Source: a virus. Taken from it: DNA of 64,000 bases. Within the stretch, counting starts at the first letter, position 1; every line of letters starts with the position of its first letter. Under the pieces are notes generated by a model that worked only from the letters and a program-made list of their open reading frames with translations, ran no database searches and was not told the DNA's origin. Shown here in pieces: positions 2,976 through 61,667 of the stretch. Location: the IMG/VR virus record IMGVR_UViG_3300012924_000001, positions 1 through 64,000 of that record; one strand, written 5' to 3'. A program made the position numbers and the translations under genes.

Positions 2976-3403
2976 GTAAAAAAGAAAGCTTTATCATAAA
3001 GCTGCATGATACATCTTACCATAAAGGTGAAGTAGTAATGACATCATGCGGTAGCGTGATGATAGTAGACAGGGAATATAATAAAGTATGGTGGCGTAGA
3101 TTGTTACTTTATATAGGAATAAAAACCAGTCGGTATAATAATATACGTCTTACAGAATATAAAAAAAATAAGCTGATGAGTAAACATTCGCAGGAAACGT
3201 ACCAGATATCAAATCTTATCAGGTTGGTAACAGTGTTACCTCACACGCTAAAAGTAGCCTCCGTGCGAGTAAGGGTAGAGGGATTGTGGACTAATGAGGA
3301 TATCCAGCAGTTAACAGAGGCTGGGTATGTAGTAGATATAACGGGGTTTGACTTTGAGACTTGTAGTGATTTTCTGGAGTTGATATTACCAAAGGCTTTG
3401 TAA
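2972..3403 (+). CDS. hypothetical protein
   Basis: ATGA-coupled to upstream ORF. Confidence 0.6.
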   Translation: MSKKESFIIKLHDTSYHKGEVVMTSCGSVMIVDREYNKVWWRRLLLYIGIKTSRYNNIRLTEYKKNKLMSKHSQETYQISNLIRLVTVLPHTLKVASVRVRVEGLWTNEDIQQLTEAGYVVDITGFDFETCSDFLELILPKAL

Positions 3404-4487: not shown

Positions 4488-4937
4488 ATGCATATGAGAC
4501 CTTTGTTAATTGATGAAAAAGCCAGGGCGGCTATAAAGGTGCTAAAGGAGAATGCAGAGAAAAACATTCTCACAGTTAGAGACATATTGGATATGTGGGA
4601 AGGAAGACAGTCTGTTTGGGGGGACAGGCCCGGTAATAGTATCAACCTGTTGGTGGGTTATAAAGTGGTCTTTGGTATGGAACAACAAAAAATAGGATTG
4701 TGTAGGCATCTTTCTGTATCCGTGAATAGCGGCAATAGAATACCAAGTTCTCATGCTATGGAAGTGTTGTTGAAAGAGTTTGGCTTCACAAATACACTCA
4801 AAGATTGCCTCCTAAGAATAGAACCAAATGATGCATTTTATGCTATAGAATGCGTAGATCCTGTAGCACATGAAAAAGTCCTTAACAATATGCATAGAAT
4901 AAAGCATCTTCCAAAAAACAACAGTAGCCCCAATTAA
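4488..4937 (+). CDS. hypothetical protein with RHLSVS motif (resembles 14219 protein)
   Basis: CRHLSVSVNSGNRIPS vs WEHVSVSIIPQMRCPT. Confidence 0.65.
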   Translation: MHMRPLLIDEKARAAIKVLKENAEKNILTVRDILDMWEGRQSVWGDRPGNSINLLVGYKVVFGMEQQKIGLCRHLSVSVNSGNRIPSSHAMEVLLKEFGFTNTLKDCLLRIEPNDAFYAIECVDPVAHEKVLNNMHRIKHLPKNNSSPN

Positions 4938-41408: not shown

Positions 41409-44400
41409 ATGATCAGATATTTAACCATATCCCTTTTACTGCTTCTTACATTATCTGTAAGGTCTCAGACTGCTGTGCCAATAGTACAAGGTGGCAAGTA
41501 TTATGAGTTTAGAAATGCAGCTCGCTTTGATTCGGCTTTTTTCTTGCCACGTCGAGATACCGGAAACAATGATCCTACCTTACTGGCTCCTGGTGAGATA
41601 ATCTACCGGGTTGCGGATGATAAGCTCTATTACCGGAAGGGAACAGCTATGACTCCCCTGGCGGAGGCCACTGGAAATGTAGTCGATAGAGTATTTACGG
41701 TAGCGCAACTAATGGCATATGCTGGAACGGCTACGGCTGTCTTTGTGGTTGATAGCTTCAGAGGGGGATATTTTAATTATGTACCGGCAGGCCCTTCTGC
41801 TCCAGCTGTAGACAGTGGGATCGTATTTCCGGCAACAGGTAAGGGAGGTGGTGTATGGCAACGTCCGTGGGACCGGATGACGGTGAACGCAAACTGGTAC
41901 GGCGTACTGCCTGATGGCAATGATTACAGTTATAGACTACAAAGGATCATTGATAAATTCTCTTTCCCAACGCTGTCAGATACCGTAGGAATTGCCATCT
42001 TATTGCCAAAAGGAATATATCGCTTTAAAGATGTTTTAATAAAAAGAGGAATAAAGCTCTATTCAGAACAAAGGAGCAAGAATAACGTAAACGCATACGT
42101 CCCCAGTAAAATATATCCTGCACCTGGAGCGATATACGTTTTTGATTTTGTAGATACCTGTTTGAATGCGGAACTGTCACATCTCTATATAGATGGAGAT
42201 TATACTAATAATCCAAATCTTCAAGCTGCGATTAGGTTGAGGGGATATTCCAATGTCCTCAATGATCTGAATGTCATTAATTGTCCAAATCATGCATTAT
42301 ACGGAGTGCTGGGCCTCAACGGTAGGGTAGAGCATAGTAATTTCCAGGGGATGTTCGCTCCGAATATTCCCTTTACCGGGTTCAATGACTTCCATGGCGC
42401 AGTTCATTTTACTGCTATGGGAGATGCTACTTTACACGATAATGAGATTGGGGCAGCGGCTCCTTATCTTATAGGTCAAGTACCAAATCCTATTGACATT
42501 ATTCGTGATCCGGTTAACTACAGGATCGTTTCTTTCTGTGGTGATATTGTAGTTAATAGTTGGATTACAAACAACTTTTTTGAAAATGGAGATCAGGGAT
42601 GTGTAATAAAAGCTGGAGTCCATAATAATTTTGGCAAGAACAGATATGAAATGAATGCCTTCAGGGGTTTGCTCTTGAAGGGTATGCAATCAAGTTTATT
42701 TACAGATGAAGAATTTGCAAATAATTCTTTGGCCATAAATGGTGGTGGAGAAGATGTTCGCCTAGATACCGGCGCAGTTGCTTTTTGCGATTTCAAGAGT
42801 CCCACATTTTTAAAGCTAGTAAGTCCGATCATTCCTTCCAGTACGTTTAAAGTAAAATATAATATCGTAAACTATTCCGGGACAGGAGGGAATTCTTTAT
42901 ATGAGCCTACCTTTTCTGATACTTCATTACTTGCCCGTTATGATAGTTTAGGTCATTTCGATACTACTTCTCAATCTGTAAAATTCCGGCAAGTATCCGG
43001 CCAGCTAGACCCGGACAATCCGGCATTCAGTTCTATTGGTGTAGGCCGTACTGGTATTATTGATCCCTGGAAGACAAAACCTTACAAGGGAGGGATAGAT
43101 ATTGGTGCCGGGACCGATGCGGCCAATGGTAGCCGGGTGGGTATTATTAGGGCCTTTAAACCCAACGAGAGTGTTCCTTGGCAAATCGGGTTCGACAATG
43201 GCAACGATATGACGTTTGCCATCTTCAATCCTTTAGGGCGATACATATTTGGAGGAGGCGAAGCTGTCTTTGCAAAAAACGGTGCAAGTGGTATCTCGAT
43301 CCAAAGCAACGATGGTCTTGCGGATACTCATATTAATTTGTATTCGGACCCGGCTTTAACGTTTAATGCAGGATTGTCACTTGACCGGAATACAGGAGGG
43401 TTAAATATTATATCTTCAAACGGTATAACTTATACGAGTGCGGTAGCAAGCACTGCAACCTTTATTAATACTGGATTTACTGTTGCCAAAGTGAATGGTG
43501 TTCCTGTAAACCTGATTTCTAATAATCTGGGCTTTACGGATGTCGCTTTTTCTTCTGATCCTATTCCCACCAGATCTGCAAGGATAAGGTTTGATAATAC
43601 AAATGGTGATTTCTCATTAACGGGAAGCGGTAATATATACATTGGAGCGAACAATAATTGGCGATTTAATTTTGATGGATCAAACGCTATTCCGGTGCCT
43701 CCTGCCCCCGCTCCTGCCGCAGCTGGTGATACGACGACATCATTTGTGCTGCGTACAAATAATGGTGGCTTGTTGAGAGTAAGGCCGAATGTATATTGGG
43801 ATAGCACACAAGTGAAGCATTATGCAGATAGTGTTAGCGCCGCAGCAGGGGCCGTCGATCTTCAGGCAGTTACAGATGTTGGTAATACTACCTCTAATCC
43901 GATAATTGTAAATAAAATAGGCGTAAATACTACACCTATTAACCATCTGGATGTGGACGGGTCCATAGGCTTTCCTCTGTTTATTTTTTCCACAGATAAT
44001 TTGCCATTTGGCAGCAGTGATTATGCATTAGGTATAAATAATACCGGGACGGGGACCGTCACTTTGCCAGATGCTACCTTATATCCGAATAGAATTTGTG
44101 AAGTAAAAAAGGTTAGTGCTACCGGCATTATTGTAAACATTGTTACGTTAGGAGGGCAGACTATTGATGGGGCAGCATCTAAAACGCTCACGGTTCAAAA
44201 TAGTTGGGGACGTTTTCAATCGGATGGGAGCAATTGGCATGTTATGGGTGAAACACTCCTTTCAAGTGTACCTACTTCCAGACTTATAAATACAACGTCT
44301 CCACTTGCCGGTGGCGGCGACTTATCTGCCGATAGAACGTTGTCGATAGCCAACGCAGCAGCAGACGGCACAACAAAGGGAGCCGCAAGCTTTACAGCGA

Positions 44401-51145: not shown

Positions 51146-51601
51146 TTATTGTTTTAACAGTAATGTTATAGCAGAGGGATTATAGTCCCATTTGTTTAAT
51201 GGATTATAGTTCCATTCGTTTAAGATTTTTAATCTCCTTACCCATATGGGTATCGCCGGGTTAAACTGTATTTTACATATTGTCTTCCATCCGCGTGGTA
51301 TTTCAGGCACTAGATTACCAAATTGTGTGAAGCAGTATAATATTTTTACTGAAAGAGCGCAAGGGTCAGATAATAACTGCATTTTGTCTTGTTCTATTAA
51401 GGACGCAAACGAACACCCTGTTGGGATACTTTCATAGGCATAATCAATAAAGAACCATCCTTCATTATATCTTGACATAAGCGCATCCACAATATCCTCT
51501 TTATTGAGCCTTCCCCATTTAAAGTGACCAGTTGCCAATAACGCAGGGAATACATGACCTTGTAATGTTAACGGATAGTATACGGCATCTTCATTTTGCA
51601 T
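51146..51601 (-). CDS. hypothetical protein
   Basis: ORF track. Confidence 0.6.
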   Translation of the reverse strand: MQNEDAVYYPLTLQGHVFPALLATGHFKWGRLNKEDIVDALMSRYNEGWFFIDYAYESIPTGCSFASLIEQDKMQLLSDPCALSVKILYCFTQFGNLVPEIPRGWKTICKIQFNPAIPIWVRRLKILNEWNYNPLNKWDYNPSAITLLLKQ

Positions 51602-52175
51602 ATGGTAAAATCATTTGATGTAAGCGGCCTTCCTTGTGAAAGCTTGTGATGGCTCCCATAAAGGCTTCCCGGTACAAATTAAAGGCTGTGATTGCCGGAA
51701 TAGCCTCTTTATTGTTTTTAATATCGCACAGTTCTGGAGGGCTAATTACATGATAAGACCTGCAAATTATGGGGCGTGCTTCATATATGGTACACTCATT
51801 GTCTTTAAGAAAGACACAGGCCGATACATCTGAGTGTAATAGCTTGTTAATAGAAAGTTTATTCTGACGTAACAAGTGGTTTTTATCTATGGCTATATTA
51901 TGTTTTCTGCAATACTCAACAATGATTGCCACCTCCTCCGTGTAAGTTGGAATATCATGATGACAACAAAAGGAGCATCCTTTTTTGCAAGAATATTGAA
52001 CCTTTGCGTTTGTGGATACCTCTTCATTAATATAATCTACTTTTGTAATAGCCCAACGAAATGCCTGCAACTTGCCAACCATTTTAATGAGTTGACCATA
52101 TTTTATTTTCCATTCAGCATACCAGTCTAATGATTCAGGATTATTTGCTATCCAGGATAAGATTTCTTTTTTCAT
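51591..52175 (-). CDS. YkgJ-family cysteine-cluster protein
   Basis: CKKGCSFCC..CVFL..CTIYEARPIICRSY. Confidence 0.85.
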   Translation of the reverse strand: MKKEILSWIANNPESLDWYAEWKIKYGQLIKMVGKLQAFRWAITKVDYINEEVSTNAKVQYSCKKGCSFCCHHDIPTYTEEVAIIVEYCRKHNIAIDKNHLLRQNKLSINKLLHSDVSACVFLKDNECTIYEARPIICRSYHVISPPELCDIKNNKEAIPAITAFNLYREAFMGAITSFHKEGRLHQMILPYAK

Positions 52176-52199
52176 AATAATATTGGTTTAGATGAAAAA

Positions 52200-52790
52200 G
52201 AAAAGGGGAACATAGCCCACGTTGCCGGATATTGCTCTCGGGTATCTTCCGACCCTCCGGAGGTTGATTTGGCCTTACGCTTTTGGACAGCTGCCTCAGC
52301 CATGTGGACGCACCCGCTATCAGCCCTTTCGGTATGTTCCCAAGAAAATTGGCCACCGTAGTTTTTCGGCATCTTTAGCTACTAGATGTTAGAATCTATC
52401 CGTTAGGACAAGCCCTGATTTTTGCGGCCAATATAATAAAGTGAAGAACTTTTAAAGATTCCTGAGCGTGTCCCTTCGGCAGTAAGCGCCGGACATCCTG
52501 CAAACCCGCCCTGACTTCGACAGTGTGCCAGACCGGAATAAATGGTTAAGAGAAAGACTACTTCCGCGGGCCTCTCCCATATTATTCTAGCTTCCTGGTA
52601 GTAACCCCCGCCGTCCTTACATTTCAGGCTGCCATTGGGATCATTAAATAAAGTTCCCGCATGATATACAGCTCTCAGGAATCCAATAAAATAAAGATCT
52701 TAAAGAAAACCCCCTCCGCACCTCATTTCTCTCAGCGCCGAGATATCCCCCATAAAGACGGATAGCGGAAGGGGTTTAGCAGGAATTGAC
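52200..52790 (-). ncRNA. large multi-domain structured RNA (~590 nt) or tandem structured RNAs
   Basis: Minus-strand TATCTTTA promoter at ~52794-52801; four closed domains separated by U-rich linkers; G-U pairs favour minus strand; GNRA-type loops. Confidence 0.7.
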
Positions 52791-52810
52791 GTTTAAAGAT
52801 AAGAGATTAT

Positions 52811-53140
52811 TTATTTTGTACCAACCTTATTACGAAAAGTATTGTAATCAGCAGCAGAAAGAAATCCTTTTTTACATCCTCCATTTAATGTCTTTTGATA
52901 TTGTACTATTCGGGGGCTGTTTTCTGGTAAAGGAGTCAAATCCGTGCGTAATTGATCAAGAACGCGCTGAAGTATCTTAGGAGGCACTTCTCCCTCTGCC
53001 AGGGTAGCAGTAGTGCAGGTTATGTGAAAGATACAGGCCTTATTAAGAATAAACGCCTTCGCTGTGCTCAGTCCAGGAACTGAATCTATTTTTCTTGCCT
53101 TTACGTGGATACCATCTACAGAAAAATTTGAATTACGCAT
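52811..53140 (-). CDS. hypothetical protein
   Basis: ORF track. Confidence 0.55.
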   Translation of the reverse strand: MRNSNFSVDGIHVKARKIDSVPGLSTAKAFILNKACIFHITCTTATLAEGEVPPKILQRVLDQLRTDLTPLPENSPRIVQYQKTLNGGCKKGFLSAADYNTFRNKVGTK

Positions 53141-53782: not shown

Positions 53783-55189
53783 ATGGCAGAAACTCCCACT
53801 CTCATTGTGATTAACAAGTATTACTCCGTTTCCTTTTATTGCGACGATCTCAAGCCGATGGACAACCGTTTACGCTACCCGACAGGAGTCAGGGCAACGG
53901 AGTCCATTTCGAAAGCGGGGCAGGAAAAAATAGATCAAATAAAGGATGATATTATGGAATATGTCTCCACCAGGAGGAGGCGAAAAAAAACAGTTCTCAA
54001 GCTGGAGTTAAAGACATTCCTTGACGAACAAAGAGGTATTTTTCTTCCGCTACCTTCTGAATCAATCGTAGCTTCAGAAGCTGAATCAAACGTAGCTTTA
54101 GAGGCCATTAAGGATCTTGTGCAAGATCACAAGGATATGATAGCCCAAATGCGGAAAGGGAATATCTTAAAAAAAGATGGCGGTGTCTATAGTCCCAATG
54201 CGTGTGATCAGTATGAGAGGATAAGAGCGCGTTGGCAAGACTGCGAGATAGCAACCAAAAACGCTGAAAATAAATTTACACTGTCCTATTTGATTACTAT
54301 TGACGACTGTAAGGCCTTACAATTGTGGCTGACCCAGCAAAAGTATAGCAAAAACACCATATATGATACGCTCAATGTTCTCAAGATATACTTGAAGTGG
54401 TCTCACAAAGAAAAATATCATCAAAACGAAGTTTTTAAAGAGATGTGTGACAGAATGAGCTTTTCCCCAGAGGTTGCTGATGCCATTGCTCCTTCTTTTG
54501 ATGAAGTTTATGCTTTATACACAAAGCATTTCGATAATACAAATGAAGAGCGTGCCAGAGACTTTTTTATTTTGGGCTGTTTTTTAGGGTTACGTGTAAA
54601 TGATCTGTATCGTATTAATGATTATTTGCTGCTCCTGCATTCTGATGGCTATTATTATTTTGATATCTTCACTCAAAAGGGGCAGAAGACAGTCTCTATT
54701 CCGGCCCACTATATAGCTCGTGAAATATATAATAAATACAGGGGCAATAAAAGTTTATGTGGGGATAATCAATTTGGGCCATTTGAACTATCAAGAATAC
54801 CAAAACAATGGCGTAAATTATACAAGCCTGGATTATTACCTGTATTCCATAAAAGCAATCTTGCTCAATATCTCCCTAAGATATGTAAAGAGACAATAAA
54901 AGGAAGCGCACTAATAACAATGACAAAAGGAGGTATAAAGGAAGCGCATCATTATGAAAGATGTGATCTAATGACTCCCCATACGATGAGGCGATTTTTT
55001 GCGACTTATATGTACTGTGATATGCATTTGTCTGCTGCGGAGGTAATGGAGTTTACTGGACACAAAACAGAAGAGAGCTTTTTTAGGTATATAAAAATAG
55101 ATCGCCAAAGAACAGTAAAGAAGGTTGCAAATATGATAGCTTTTACGGGACCAGTCGAACTTTCTTCCAATCTTTCCGTGGTAGCGTAA
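53783..55189 (+). CDS. int: tyrosine recombinase/integrase
   Basis: GLRVND, TQK, HTMRRFFAT, TGH..F.RYI catalytic set. Confidence 0.92.
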   Translation: MAETPTLIVINKYYSVSFYCDDLKPMDNRLRYPTGVRATESISKAGQEKIDQIKDDIMEYVSTRRRRKKTVLKLELKTFLDEQRGIFLPLPSESIVASEAESNVALEAIKDLVQDHKDMIAQMRKGNILKKDGGVYSPNACDQYERIRARWQDCEIATKNAENKFTLSYLITIDDCKALQLWLTQQKYSKNTIYDTLNVLKIYLKWSHKEKYHQNEVFKEMCDRMSFSPEVADAIAPSFDEVYALYTKHFDNTNEERARDFFILGCFLGLRVNDLYRINDYLLLLHSDGYYYFDIFTQKGQKTVSIPAHYIAREIYNKYRGNKSLCGDNQFGPFELSRIPKQWRKLYKPGLLPVFHKSNLAQYLPKICKETIKGSALITMTKGGIKEAHHYERCDLMTPHTMRRFFATYMYCDMHLSAAEVMEFTGHKTEESFFRYIKIDRQRTVKKVANMIAFTGPVELSSNLSVVA

Positions 55190-58422: not shown

Positions 58423-58704
58423 TTAATATAAACACGCTTTCGCCCATCCATTTGCATCGAAGTACCCGTTCTTCTCCCACGGTGCTTTCTTTTCAAAGTC
58501 AAATGGTTCTTCCAGAAGTGGAGGGATACCATCTCCATTGTAAGAGTATATATATCCTCCCCAGAAATTTTCATCCTGAACAAGATGCCTAAACTTAGAA
58601 ACATCCATTCTGATAGAGGCAGCCCCTTCTTTAATAGAAGCGAAGCTATCTATCAACTCTCCTTTTACGTTATACTTAAAAACGGGGATGCCTATTTTTG
58701 ACAT
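58423..58704 (-). CDS. NUMOD1-domain DNA-binding protein
   Basis: PVFKYNVKGELIDSFASIKEGA..GYIYSY. Confidence 0.7.
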   Translation of the reverse strand: MSKIGIPVFKYNVKGELIDSFASIKEGAASIRMDVSKFRHLVQDENFWGGYIYSYNGDGIPPLLEEPFDFEKKAPWEKNGYFDANGWAKACLY

Positions 58705-58970
58705 TATTCCTGTACTAATTTGTATTTTTTACACCTAATCTTATTACCCTGCGAATCCATTACAGTTATCATCTTACCCTCTATATTAATTTTACTTCGA
58801 TGTCGGAGGTCGGCAATTCTACTGTTTAAATAATGTATACGATACAATCGTAAGGCTGAAAGGAAAGTAATTGTTTTCCCACTCGCTAAATGCTGATAAA
58901 TTAATCTGTTCTGTCTTTCTAATTTATCAACATTAATAGGACTTGCAGTTGTCATTTTGAGGGTTGCCAT
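58704..58970 (-). CDS. winged HTH protein
   Basis: IYQHL.SGKTIT.LSA..LNSRIADLR..YKL. Confidence 0.75.
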   Translation of the reverse strand: MATLKMTTASPINVDKLERQNRLIYQHLASGKTITFLSALRLYRIHYLNSRIADLRHRSKINIEGKMITVMDSQGNKIRCKKYKLVQE

Positions 58971-61584: not shown

Positions 61585-61599
61585 AATAAGATAAGTATG

Positions 61600-61667
61600 A
61601 GCTATGTCCAGGGGTCGAACCCGGATCTCCTCCTTCAGGAAGAATCTTGCCATTAGACCAACACAGC
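61600..61667 (-). tRNA. tRNA-like element with 4-nt anticodon loop (no assignable anticodon, no CCA)
   Basis: GCTGTGT-TG-GTCT AATGGCA AGAT-T-CTTCC TGAA GGAGG-AGAT-CCGGG TTCGACC CCTGG-ACATAGC-T. Confidence 0.75.

Follow-up and report, generated by a model that had tools for sequence, protein, structure and literature searches.

Small RNAs in which a tRNA-like module is fused to a second functional module are known from bacteria and viruses, namely the bacterial Y RNA-like RNAs such as YrlA and the tRNA-miRNA units of murid herpesvirus 68, both presumably matured by tRNA-processing enzymes, and the ROOL and GOLLD RNAs often adjoin tRNA genes. Here we describe an RNA element, domain 4, on the minus strand of virus record IMGVR_UViG_3300012924_000001, a complete genome of 78,334 bp with direct terminal repeats, of which the first 64 kb form the window. 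The element lies in a gene-free gap for which an earlier note had described four stem-closed domains, numbered 1 to 4, and had proposed one large RNA with several domains, in the manner of GOLLD and ROOL. We find instead that domain 4 can be separated from domains 1-3 and does not depend on the genes beside it. The reading that we favour, with a little more confidence than doubt, is that domain 4 would be a mobile, stand-alone, trans-acting small RNA derived from a tRNA-Leu, and domains 1-3 a separate insert.

The collection of homologues and the Rfam search suggested in the earlier note were both carried out. The conserved core of domain 4 was searched as 20-22-mers in 185,579 species genomes (GTDB), in metagenome contigs of the Joint Genome Institute (JGI) and in IMG/VR, and matched one contig of a Mucilaginibacter metagenome-assembled genome (MAG) in GTDB, ten JGI contigs and one IMG/VR contig. 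A second pattern added the IMG/VR contig L017, and four further pattern scans of IMG/VR returned no member beyond L014 and L017. Leaving out L014 (the same as L008), the duplicates among L004, L006 and L013 (one sequence) and L005 gave ten independent members, which come from phages, a provirus and the Mucilaginibacter MAG. Contig L005 (Ga0137414_1239839), considered as a second divergent copy, was rejected as a fold-back, error-rich contig of the window's own phage: its 5.8 kb run through window positions 53612-50666 and then from 50750 back to 53612 at 92-96% identity with many indels, an assembly or long-read artefact. L004, L006 and L013, all from sample Ga0315900, have the element and ~55 nt downstream in common and then diverge, two of them starting within the element, which seems to act as a repeat or a boundary between strains in the assembly graph of that sample.

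The structure was derived by hand and a covariance model (R1) was built from a MAFFT alignment of seven sequences. In this alignment 97.2% of cells pair and 11 of the 21 pairs show compensatory changes, with slid controls at 20-56%, a result reached by 0 of 500 shuffles. When all ten members were aligned with the model, using a corrected P5 helix, 96.7% of cells were paired and compensatory changes were found in 14 of 22 pairs, compared with 74.5% pairing in shuffles and 16-51% in slid controls. The RNA strand must be the minus strand of the window because ten cells hold G-U pairs. With this model, domain 4 scores 129 bits (E 4e-35) and is the sole copy in the 78-kb genome. Scores across the members are 66-137 bits, and carriers have one copy per genome; a weak second match in L017 (16.7 bits) lies in apparent coding sequence and was discarded. 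Among 150 further Sphingobacteriaceae genomes R1 revealed no new member and matched the known MAG alone. As judged by covariation, domain 4 is thus a conserved, strand-specific, non-coding structured RNA that is new to Rfam, and the earlier claim of a structured RNA on the minus strand holds for this domain.

Rfam 15 gave no match at gathering score across the 64-kb window, including GOLLD, ROOL or any other large RNA, so that novelty was not removed by this search; relaxing the threshold to E values up to 10 on 51900-53100 gave two chance matches, both outside domains 1-4. The element in L003 and L007-L012 likewise had no Rfam match, and ARAGORN found no tRNA or tmRNA (transfer-messenger RNA) in the gap, nor any at 52206-52341 with or without introns, which bears out the earlier statement that the locus does not match tmRNA, RNase P, the signal recognition particle (SRP) RNA or an intron. 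A possible likeness to 5S rRNA, SRP helix 8 and the 16S 790 loop found no support from the Rfam models and was dropped. Neither the gap, compared by BLAST with GenBank phages, nor domain 4, compared with plasmids, had a match, and a literature search for the core sequence and related terms did not find the motif described. A survey of IMG/VR reports about 8,500 unnamed candidate RNA motifs, tRNA-like ones included (PMC10690425); its main text names no motif with the features of domain 4, and the family could be among its bulk motifs. Words of 31 nt from the core occur in about 19 public sequencing runs (soil, sediment, sludge, wastewater, mine drainage, water), with two or three words each, and none of the runs listed was of RNA. 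The full stretch was found by 31-mers only in the probable source sample and partly in one other soil run, and in the four runs examined all shared 31-mers fell within 52218-52306, with flanks unlike the window.

Domain 4 folds as a three-way junction, with P2 as the closing helix, P3 and P4/P5 as branches and the single strand J1/2 preceding P2 (Table 1). The outer helix P1 has changed in sequence and kept its complementarity in L012, L010, L009 and L011, and is replaced by a tRNA acceptor stem in L008 and L017. P2 shows both-sided changes in all six pairs, with 98% of cells paired. P3 is a 3-bp helix bearing P3a, which covaries at 3/3 pairs (GCU/AGC, GGG/CCU, GCC/GGC, AGA/UCU, ACU/GGU, GCA/UGC). 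P4 is paired in 100% of cells and two of its pairs covary (CCGG/CCGG, CCUG/CAGG, UCUG/CAGA, CCG/CGG). It surrounds P5, a GGAA-tetraloop hairpin of the form GGG-UC-GGAA-GA-(UA bulge)-CCC. The invariant 30-nt core is identical in nine of the ten members, and L017 differs from it at two mutually pairing positions. P5 is drawn in this form because the changes in L017 turn a U:A pair into C:G, one compensatory change; RNAalifold's pairing of the invariant hairpin through UCGG/CCGA, which this double change would break, was dropped. At the site of the extra GAAA hairpin that follows P1 in the window, the loose end of a contig from public run X3 reads CUC-GAAA-GAG, and L012, L010 and L009 have no hairpin. 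The U-rich run CUUUUCUUUUU, which may mark the RNA 3' end or act as an attenuator, has counterparts past the closing helix in L012, L010, L011 and L008 (with the window, 5 of 8 full-length members) and none in L009 and L017.

Table 1. Features of the gap, of the four domains and of the neighbouring genes, in window coordinates
Feature	Position	Strand	Description
Gene-free gap	52176-52810	minus	635 nt, between ORF 52811-53140 and ORF 51591-52175
Domain 4	52206-52341	minus	136 nt: P1, small GAAA hairpin, 110-nt conserved core
P1, 5' strand GGGAACAUA	52333-52341	minus	pairs with UAUGUUCCC at 52206-52214
CC-GAAA-GG hairpin	52325-52332	minus	lineage-specific extra
J1/2 GCUGAUAGCGGGUGC	52310-52324	minus	conserved single strand (several alignments)
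P2, 5' strand GUCCAC	52304-52309	minus	pairs with GUGGGC at 52215-52220
P3a hairpin	52279-52291	minus	3-bp stem GCU/AGC, conserved loop GUCCAAA
P4 (CCGGA/UCCGG) around P5	52225-52260	minus	with one-sided purine-rich loop GAGAGCAAUA
Invariant 30-nt core GAGGGUCGGAAGAUACCCGAGAGCAAUAUC	52228-52257	minus	
U-rich run CUUUUCUUUUU	52195-52205	minus	immediately past P1
66-aa ORF over domain 4	52172-52372	minus	ATGA overlap: its TGA overlaps the ATG of the next gene
Block of domains 1-3	52348-52784	minus	437 nt, CAAT at both edges
Domain 1	52707-52777	minus	Y-shaped hairpin, 13-bp stem, A run before, U run after
Domain 2	52457-52683	minus	227 nt, perfect 10-bp closing stem, z -0.7
Domain 3	52348-52432	minus	85-nt cloverleaf-shaped fold, 9-bp closing stem, U run after
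Domain 1 closing stem	52777/52707		13 bp, one G-U
Domain 2 closing stem	52683/52457		10 bp, or 11 bp with one G-U
Domain 3 closing stem	52432/52348		9 bp, one G-U
Domain 4 closing stem	52341/52206		9 bp, perfect
Promoter-like box TATCTTTA	52794-52801	minus	near match to Bacteroidota -7 box (TAnnTTTG)
CxxCxxCC/YkgJ-like gene	51591-52175	minus	Pfam PF03692, E 1e-7
Tyrosine-integrase-like gene	53783-55189	plus	1.4 kb from domain 4 region
ORF, open reading frame.

The origin of the family is visible in two members, L008 (the same as L014, a 53-kb provirus) and L017 (a 30-kb viral contig), in which the core is flanked by tRNA parts rather than by P1. Their 7-bp acceptor stems covary, GGUAUGG/CCAUACC in L008 and GAACAGA/UCUGUUC in L017, and both carry U8-G9, a D arm GGCG(G/A)AAUUGGU(U)AGACGC, a T arm (UUCGAAU or UUCGAUU) and A73. 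A search of four Sphingobacteriaceae genomes for the D-arm motif GGCGRAATTGGTAGACGC gave eight matches, every one of them (8/8) within a tRNA-Leu gene. Furthermore, J1/2, with NAG-C-GGGUG, aligns with ..GAGGGGGUGG.. of host tRNA-Leu(GAG), which has GAG-G-GGGUG there; it falls on the anticodon and the 3' anticodon-stem strand, and the three-way junction takes the place of the long variable arm. J1/2 therefore looks like a remnant of the tRNA-Leu anticodon loop and 3' anticodon-stem strand, and the 5' strand of P1 in L012 and L010 (GGCGGUUAG-CUGAUAGCGGGUG) reads like the same D arm joined to J1/2 by an internal deletion. The D arm and A73 that speak for tRNA-Leu descent are found in the two framed members. 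The window copy keeps the J1/2 remnant only; it has no acceptor, D or T arm and, as in five other members, carries a plain P1 instead. Taken together, these comparisons of sequence and structure show that the family descends from a class II tRNA-Leu.

Default ARAGORN called no tRNA in L008 or L017, and Rfam RF00005 was silent on both. When introns were allowed, ARAGORN read L017 as a tRNA-Leu(CAG) with a 91-nt insert at position 31-32 and L008 as a tRNA with an 86-nt insert at position 38-39 and the Ala anticodon AGC. These calls would agree with the core being an intron-like or self-processing insert (a small ribozyme) in a phage tRNA-Leu, and the strictly invariant unpaired nucleotides resemble a catalytic core. 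On this view the framed forms would be interrupted tRNAs maturing to functional tRNAs, with the P1 forms as copies that have escaped or decayed. However, we do not read the core as an intron, because the two calls disagree on isotype and on insert position. The predicted exon junction falls inside the covarying P4, group I introns are far larger than 86-91 nt, and no Rfam ribozyme or intron model matches. The six members without tRNA exons keep a covarying P1 and P2, so the core is selected for its own sake, and we consider an intron or ribozyme origin very unlikely.

A further view, which we regard as quite unlikely, is that the family forms a new functional class of tRNA-derived RNA. The element would then be a tRNA-Leu body whose anticodon and variable region have been rebuilt as a compact domain for catalysis or for binding a ligand or protein. 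Processing and CCA addition would still take place in the framed forms L008 and L017, perhaps together with leucylation, and the phages would use the RNA in subverting translation or disarming tRNA-directed defence. If true, this would be the second natural chargeable tRNA chimera, after tmRNA. Elsewhere in the window, at 61599-61667 on the minus strand, ARAGORN reports a 'tRNA-???' with a two-base anticodon (ga) and a shortened anticodon loop, its sole tRNA-like call in the entire 78-kb genome; the phage therefore has a second tRNA-derived oddity beside domain 4.

The genes around the element vary by locus: a CxxCxxCC protein and a phosphoesterase in the window, NinB in L010, a large DNA methylase in L008, an IS1595-type transposase in L003 and proteins without assignment elsewhere. 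In the window, the CxxCxxCC gene starts 31 nt past P1 of domain 4 and is the first of four co-oriented genes, the third being a metallophosphoesterase (Pfam PF00149). The earlier placement of the RNA upstream of a YkgJ/phosphoesterase operon is thus correct here, but the link is not conserved, as the downstream genes of other members differ. L009 has the element inside a tRNA array (Phe, Val, Ala, Trp, element, Val), where four tandem TAGAATA heptads (3300-3332, plus strand) that look like stacked -10 boxes directly precede the RNA 5' end. The most divergent member, in the Mucilaginibacter MAG (L003), lies at 2511-2624 on the plus strand, 11 nt past the stop codon of the transposase gene (1601-2500, plus; PF12762, E 5e-38), and a hairpin terminator of its own follows it.

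No protein is common to all three carrier phage genomes. An ~85-aa protein encoded in G000 (58704-58970, minus) and in G002 (44051-44305, minus; ~2.5 kb from the RNA gene) shows 40% identity over 65 aa; it is one of only four proteins matched by BLASTP between the window phage and the L008/L014 provirus, and the third carrier does not have it. Searches for syntenic loci by protein returned none with the CxxCxxCC protein and one short contig with a 679-aa protein. Thus, no phage-encoded partner is visible in these comparisons. Given the varied neighbours, the single copy and the absence of a shared protein, we conclude that the element is a rare accessory gene moving between unrelated phages.

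These loci also bear on whether domain 4 acts in cis as a leader (riboswitch, attenuator or processive antiterminator), with P1 and the U run serving as a conditional terminator. Aptamers typically have invariant nucleotides in junctions and loops next to covarying helices, as here, the U run follows P1 in the 5 of 8 full-length members noted above, and J1/2 CGGGU could compete with the GGG of P5 for ACCC(G) in a switch-like manner. L011 would weaken the case for a candidate pseudoknot between J1/2 CGGGU and ACCCG. A riboswitch or leader would be expected at a consistent position before related genes on the same strand, and such a pattern was not found: the downstream genes are unrelated (CxxCxxCC protein, NinB, methylase, proteins without assignment, a tRNA). 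In L017 the element lies on the strand opposite to both neighbours, and the RNA there has no gene to regulate because it is antisense to both. In addition, the separate hairpin terminator after the element in L003 argues against a leader, and the acceptor and T arms that frame two members fit a processed stable RNA. On balance a leader role, the main rival to the reading that we favour, is unlikely: it suits four loci, but not L017, L009, L003 or the tRNA-framed forms.

Under the reading that we favour, a mobile trans-acting RNA, domain 4 would be transcribed as part of an RNA of the early or accessory kind. Termination at the U run past P1 would release the P1 forms as stable RNAs, and RNase P and RNase Z would release the tRNA-framed forms. 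Through its invariant hairpin-and-loop core, the RNA would act in trans on a conserved component of the host. Because the P1 forms lack the tRNA top half, the function must reside in this core, and since the element moves between phages without shared proteins, it probably acts on something universal in the host. The target would most plausibly handle tRNA-Leu or class II tRNAs, which the RNA would mimic or decoy. Candidates are a tRNA-targeting defence nuclease, which would be decoyed, or a tRNA-binding enzyme, which would be sequestered. The RNA gene itself would be passed among unrelated phages as a mobile accessory.

Several points weigh against this proposal. In four of the ten members (the window, L010, L012 and L011) a co-oriented ORF begins 14-40 nt after the closing helix, too close to leave space for a promoter. 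At these loci the RNA is physically the 5' leader of that ORF, so that a role in cis is possible there. Functions that depend on a tRNA shape would fail for the P1 forms, since they have lost the acceptor, D and T arms. The ten-sequence alignment was fitted to R1 and so favours the structure, with which the MAFFT-only picture agrees, and the thermodynamic z score of domain 4 is unremarkable (-0.8). As every member was found through the core, its invariance, like the apparent spread of the family, comes partly from the retrieval. Finally, we infer the stable RNA, its ends and its processing, and the decoy idea is drawn from ancestry alone.

As for the earlier proposal of one large RNA, direct reading of the minus strand locates all four closing stems where they had been placed, and the gap is, as had been stated, richer in G+C than its flanks (0.47-0.50 vs about 0.33-0.41). 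The gap holds five long-range stems of at least 9 bp, compared with 1.75 +/- 1.34 in dinucleotide shuffles, 11 of 300 of which reached five, a modest excess. The folding z score of the whole gap is +0.6 and, like those of domains 2 and 4, no better than shuffles. A contig of 57,308 nt from a related phage (the X3 run), 95-97% identical in the matched parts, fuses 52785 to 52347 through a joint with four ambiguous letters; it retains domain 4 and the last part of the upstream gene, its similarity ends at 52201, and its downstream gene differs. The four domains are not one unit, because this relative lacks domains 1-3. In no other place did 31-mer, BLAST and model searches find similarity to domains 1-3 (the remaining genome, any fetched locus, GenBank phages or other public runs), and the nine other family members have no comparable domains upstream of the element. 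The single RNA of the GOLLD/ROOL type is therefore not upheld, and only the 136-nt domain 4 is conserved. That the whole 570-nt stretch forms one such RNA, or an obligate four-part precursor, is in our view highly improbable, even though four stem-closed modules with U-rich linkers between them tile the gap and the sole promoter-like box stands before domain 1; stem-closed domains tiling a gap, four in this case, are no evidence of a single large RNA. The edge of the indel is exactly the last base of the domain 3 closing stem, a point in favour of such modules that hints at modular cassettes, and a polycistronic RNA precursor is possible in this phage.

Individually, domain 1 folds with -33.9 kcal/mol and a z score of -4.1, with 0 of 200 shuffles as good. 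Its stem is followed by UUUUCUUU, and its 45-nt branched loop falls outside the definition used in the terminator scan, which did not list it; domain 1 probably serves as a branched terminator for the gene upstream, or else is a small RNA. Domain 3 has weak support with a z score of -2.3 (3 of 200 shuffles as good), no tRNA call by ARAGORN and no homologues, and domain 2 has neither a homologue nor an Rfam match. Domains 2 and 3 may be additional cassettes for small RNAs, with their closing stems as the sole support.

Similarity to the X3 contig ends right past domain 4, at 52201, as it would at a mosaic joint. Together with the identity of the 30-nt core in unrelated phages and an integrase 1.4 kb away, this could indicate that the conserved stretch is constrained as DNA, for recombination or as an att-type site where mosaic segments meet. 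Alternatively, the stretch could be constrained as protein, as the 66-aa ORF across domain 4, overlapping the next start codon, is open in the window, L012, L008 and L006. The compensatory changes in 14 of 22 pairs, the ten strand-specific G-U pairs and the tRNA framing of L008 and L017 count against both, and we give these two explanations hardly any credence. Moreover, the frame of the ORF has an in-frame TGA before the invariant core in L009, L010 and L017 and is lost in L011, L007 and L003, and the variable columns by codon position (11/13/8) show no third-position bias. We read the ORF as non-coding. The 468-aa integrase-like protein scores below the Pfam cut-offs (PF00589, 17 bits; PF13102, 20 bits) and is a rather divergent tyrosine recombinase.

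The box that the earlier note had placed before domain 1, TATCTTTA, is present, but it is a near match to the Bacteroidota box and the gap has no exact TAnnTTTG on its minus strand; sigma-70 and terminator scans of the gap stayed at chance level. In the relative without domains 1-3 the box would stand ~17 nt ahead of domain 4, and by its sequence we infer that it may act as a promoter. In the X3 contig, the 46-nt piece of the upstream gene region at window positions 52826-52871 is repeated, inverted and ~8.4 kb away (contig positions 13144-13189 vs 4666-4780).

Strongly covarying phage small RNAs without known function are rare entry points to new biology, and domain 4 RNA is a candidate host-takeover or anti-defence RNA. 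Its origin is clear, the lower half of a tRNA-Leu having become a different machine with tRNA-framed intermediates still in nature, and its small size (110 nt) and invariant 30-nt module make it easily testable.

Compared with a class II tRNA-Leu, the framed members L008 and L017 share the acceptor stem, D arm, T arm and A73, and J1/2 of the family resembles the anticodon region; in contrast, the family has no anticodon stem and carries a three-way-junction RNA of ~95 nt at the site of the variable arm. Unlike a standard tRNA, no member is called by ARAGORN or the Rfam tRNA model unless an intron is allowed. The likeness to tmRNA is purely architectural: in both, a tRNA-like top half (acceptor and T arm) surrounds a larger insert that is functional. 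The frame of the family is of Leu type with a true D stem and not an Ala-type acceptor with G3:U70, its length is 110-170 nt vs about 350 nt, it has no pseudoknot series and no conserved tag frame, and neither the ARAGORN tmRNA search nor Rfam RF00023 matched the element. Like YrlA, the framed forms of domain 4 couple a tRNA-like and a second module; however, the ends of YrlA form the Ro-binding stem and its tRNA-like part is internal, whereas the ends of this family are an acceptor stem or P1. The Rfam YrlA model did not match the element, and no Ro/Rsr gene was noted nearby. With GOLLD and ROOL the family has in common that it is phage-borne and non-coding and, in L009, stands beside tRNA genes, but its conserved unit is 110 nt vs 500-800 nt, it has no Rfam match and the 570-nt assembly is not conserved. 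Domain 4 therefore represents a new RNA family, without an Rfam entry, of a known kind, the tRNA-derived or tRNA-framed small RNAs to which tmRNA and YrlA belong.

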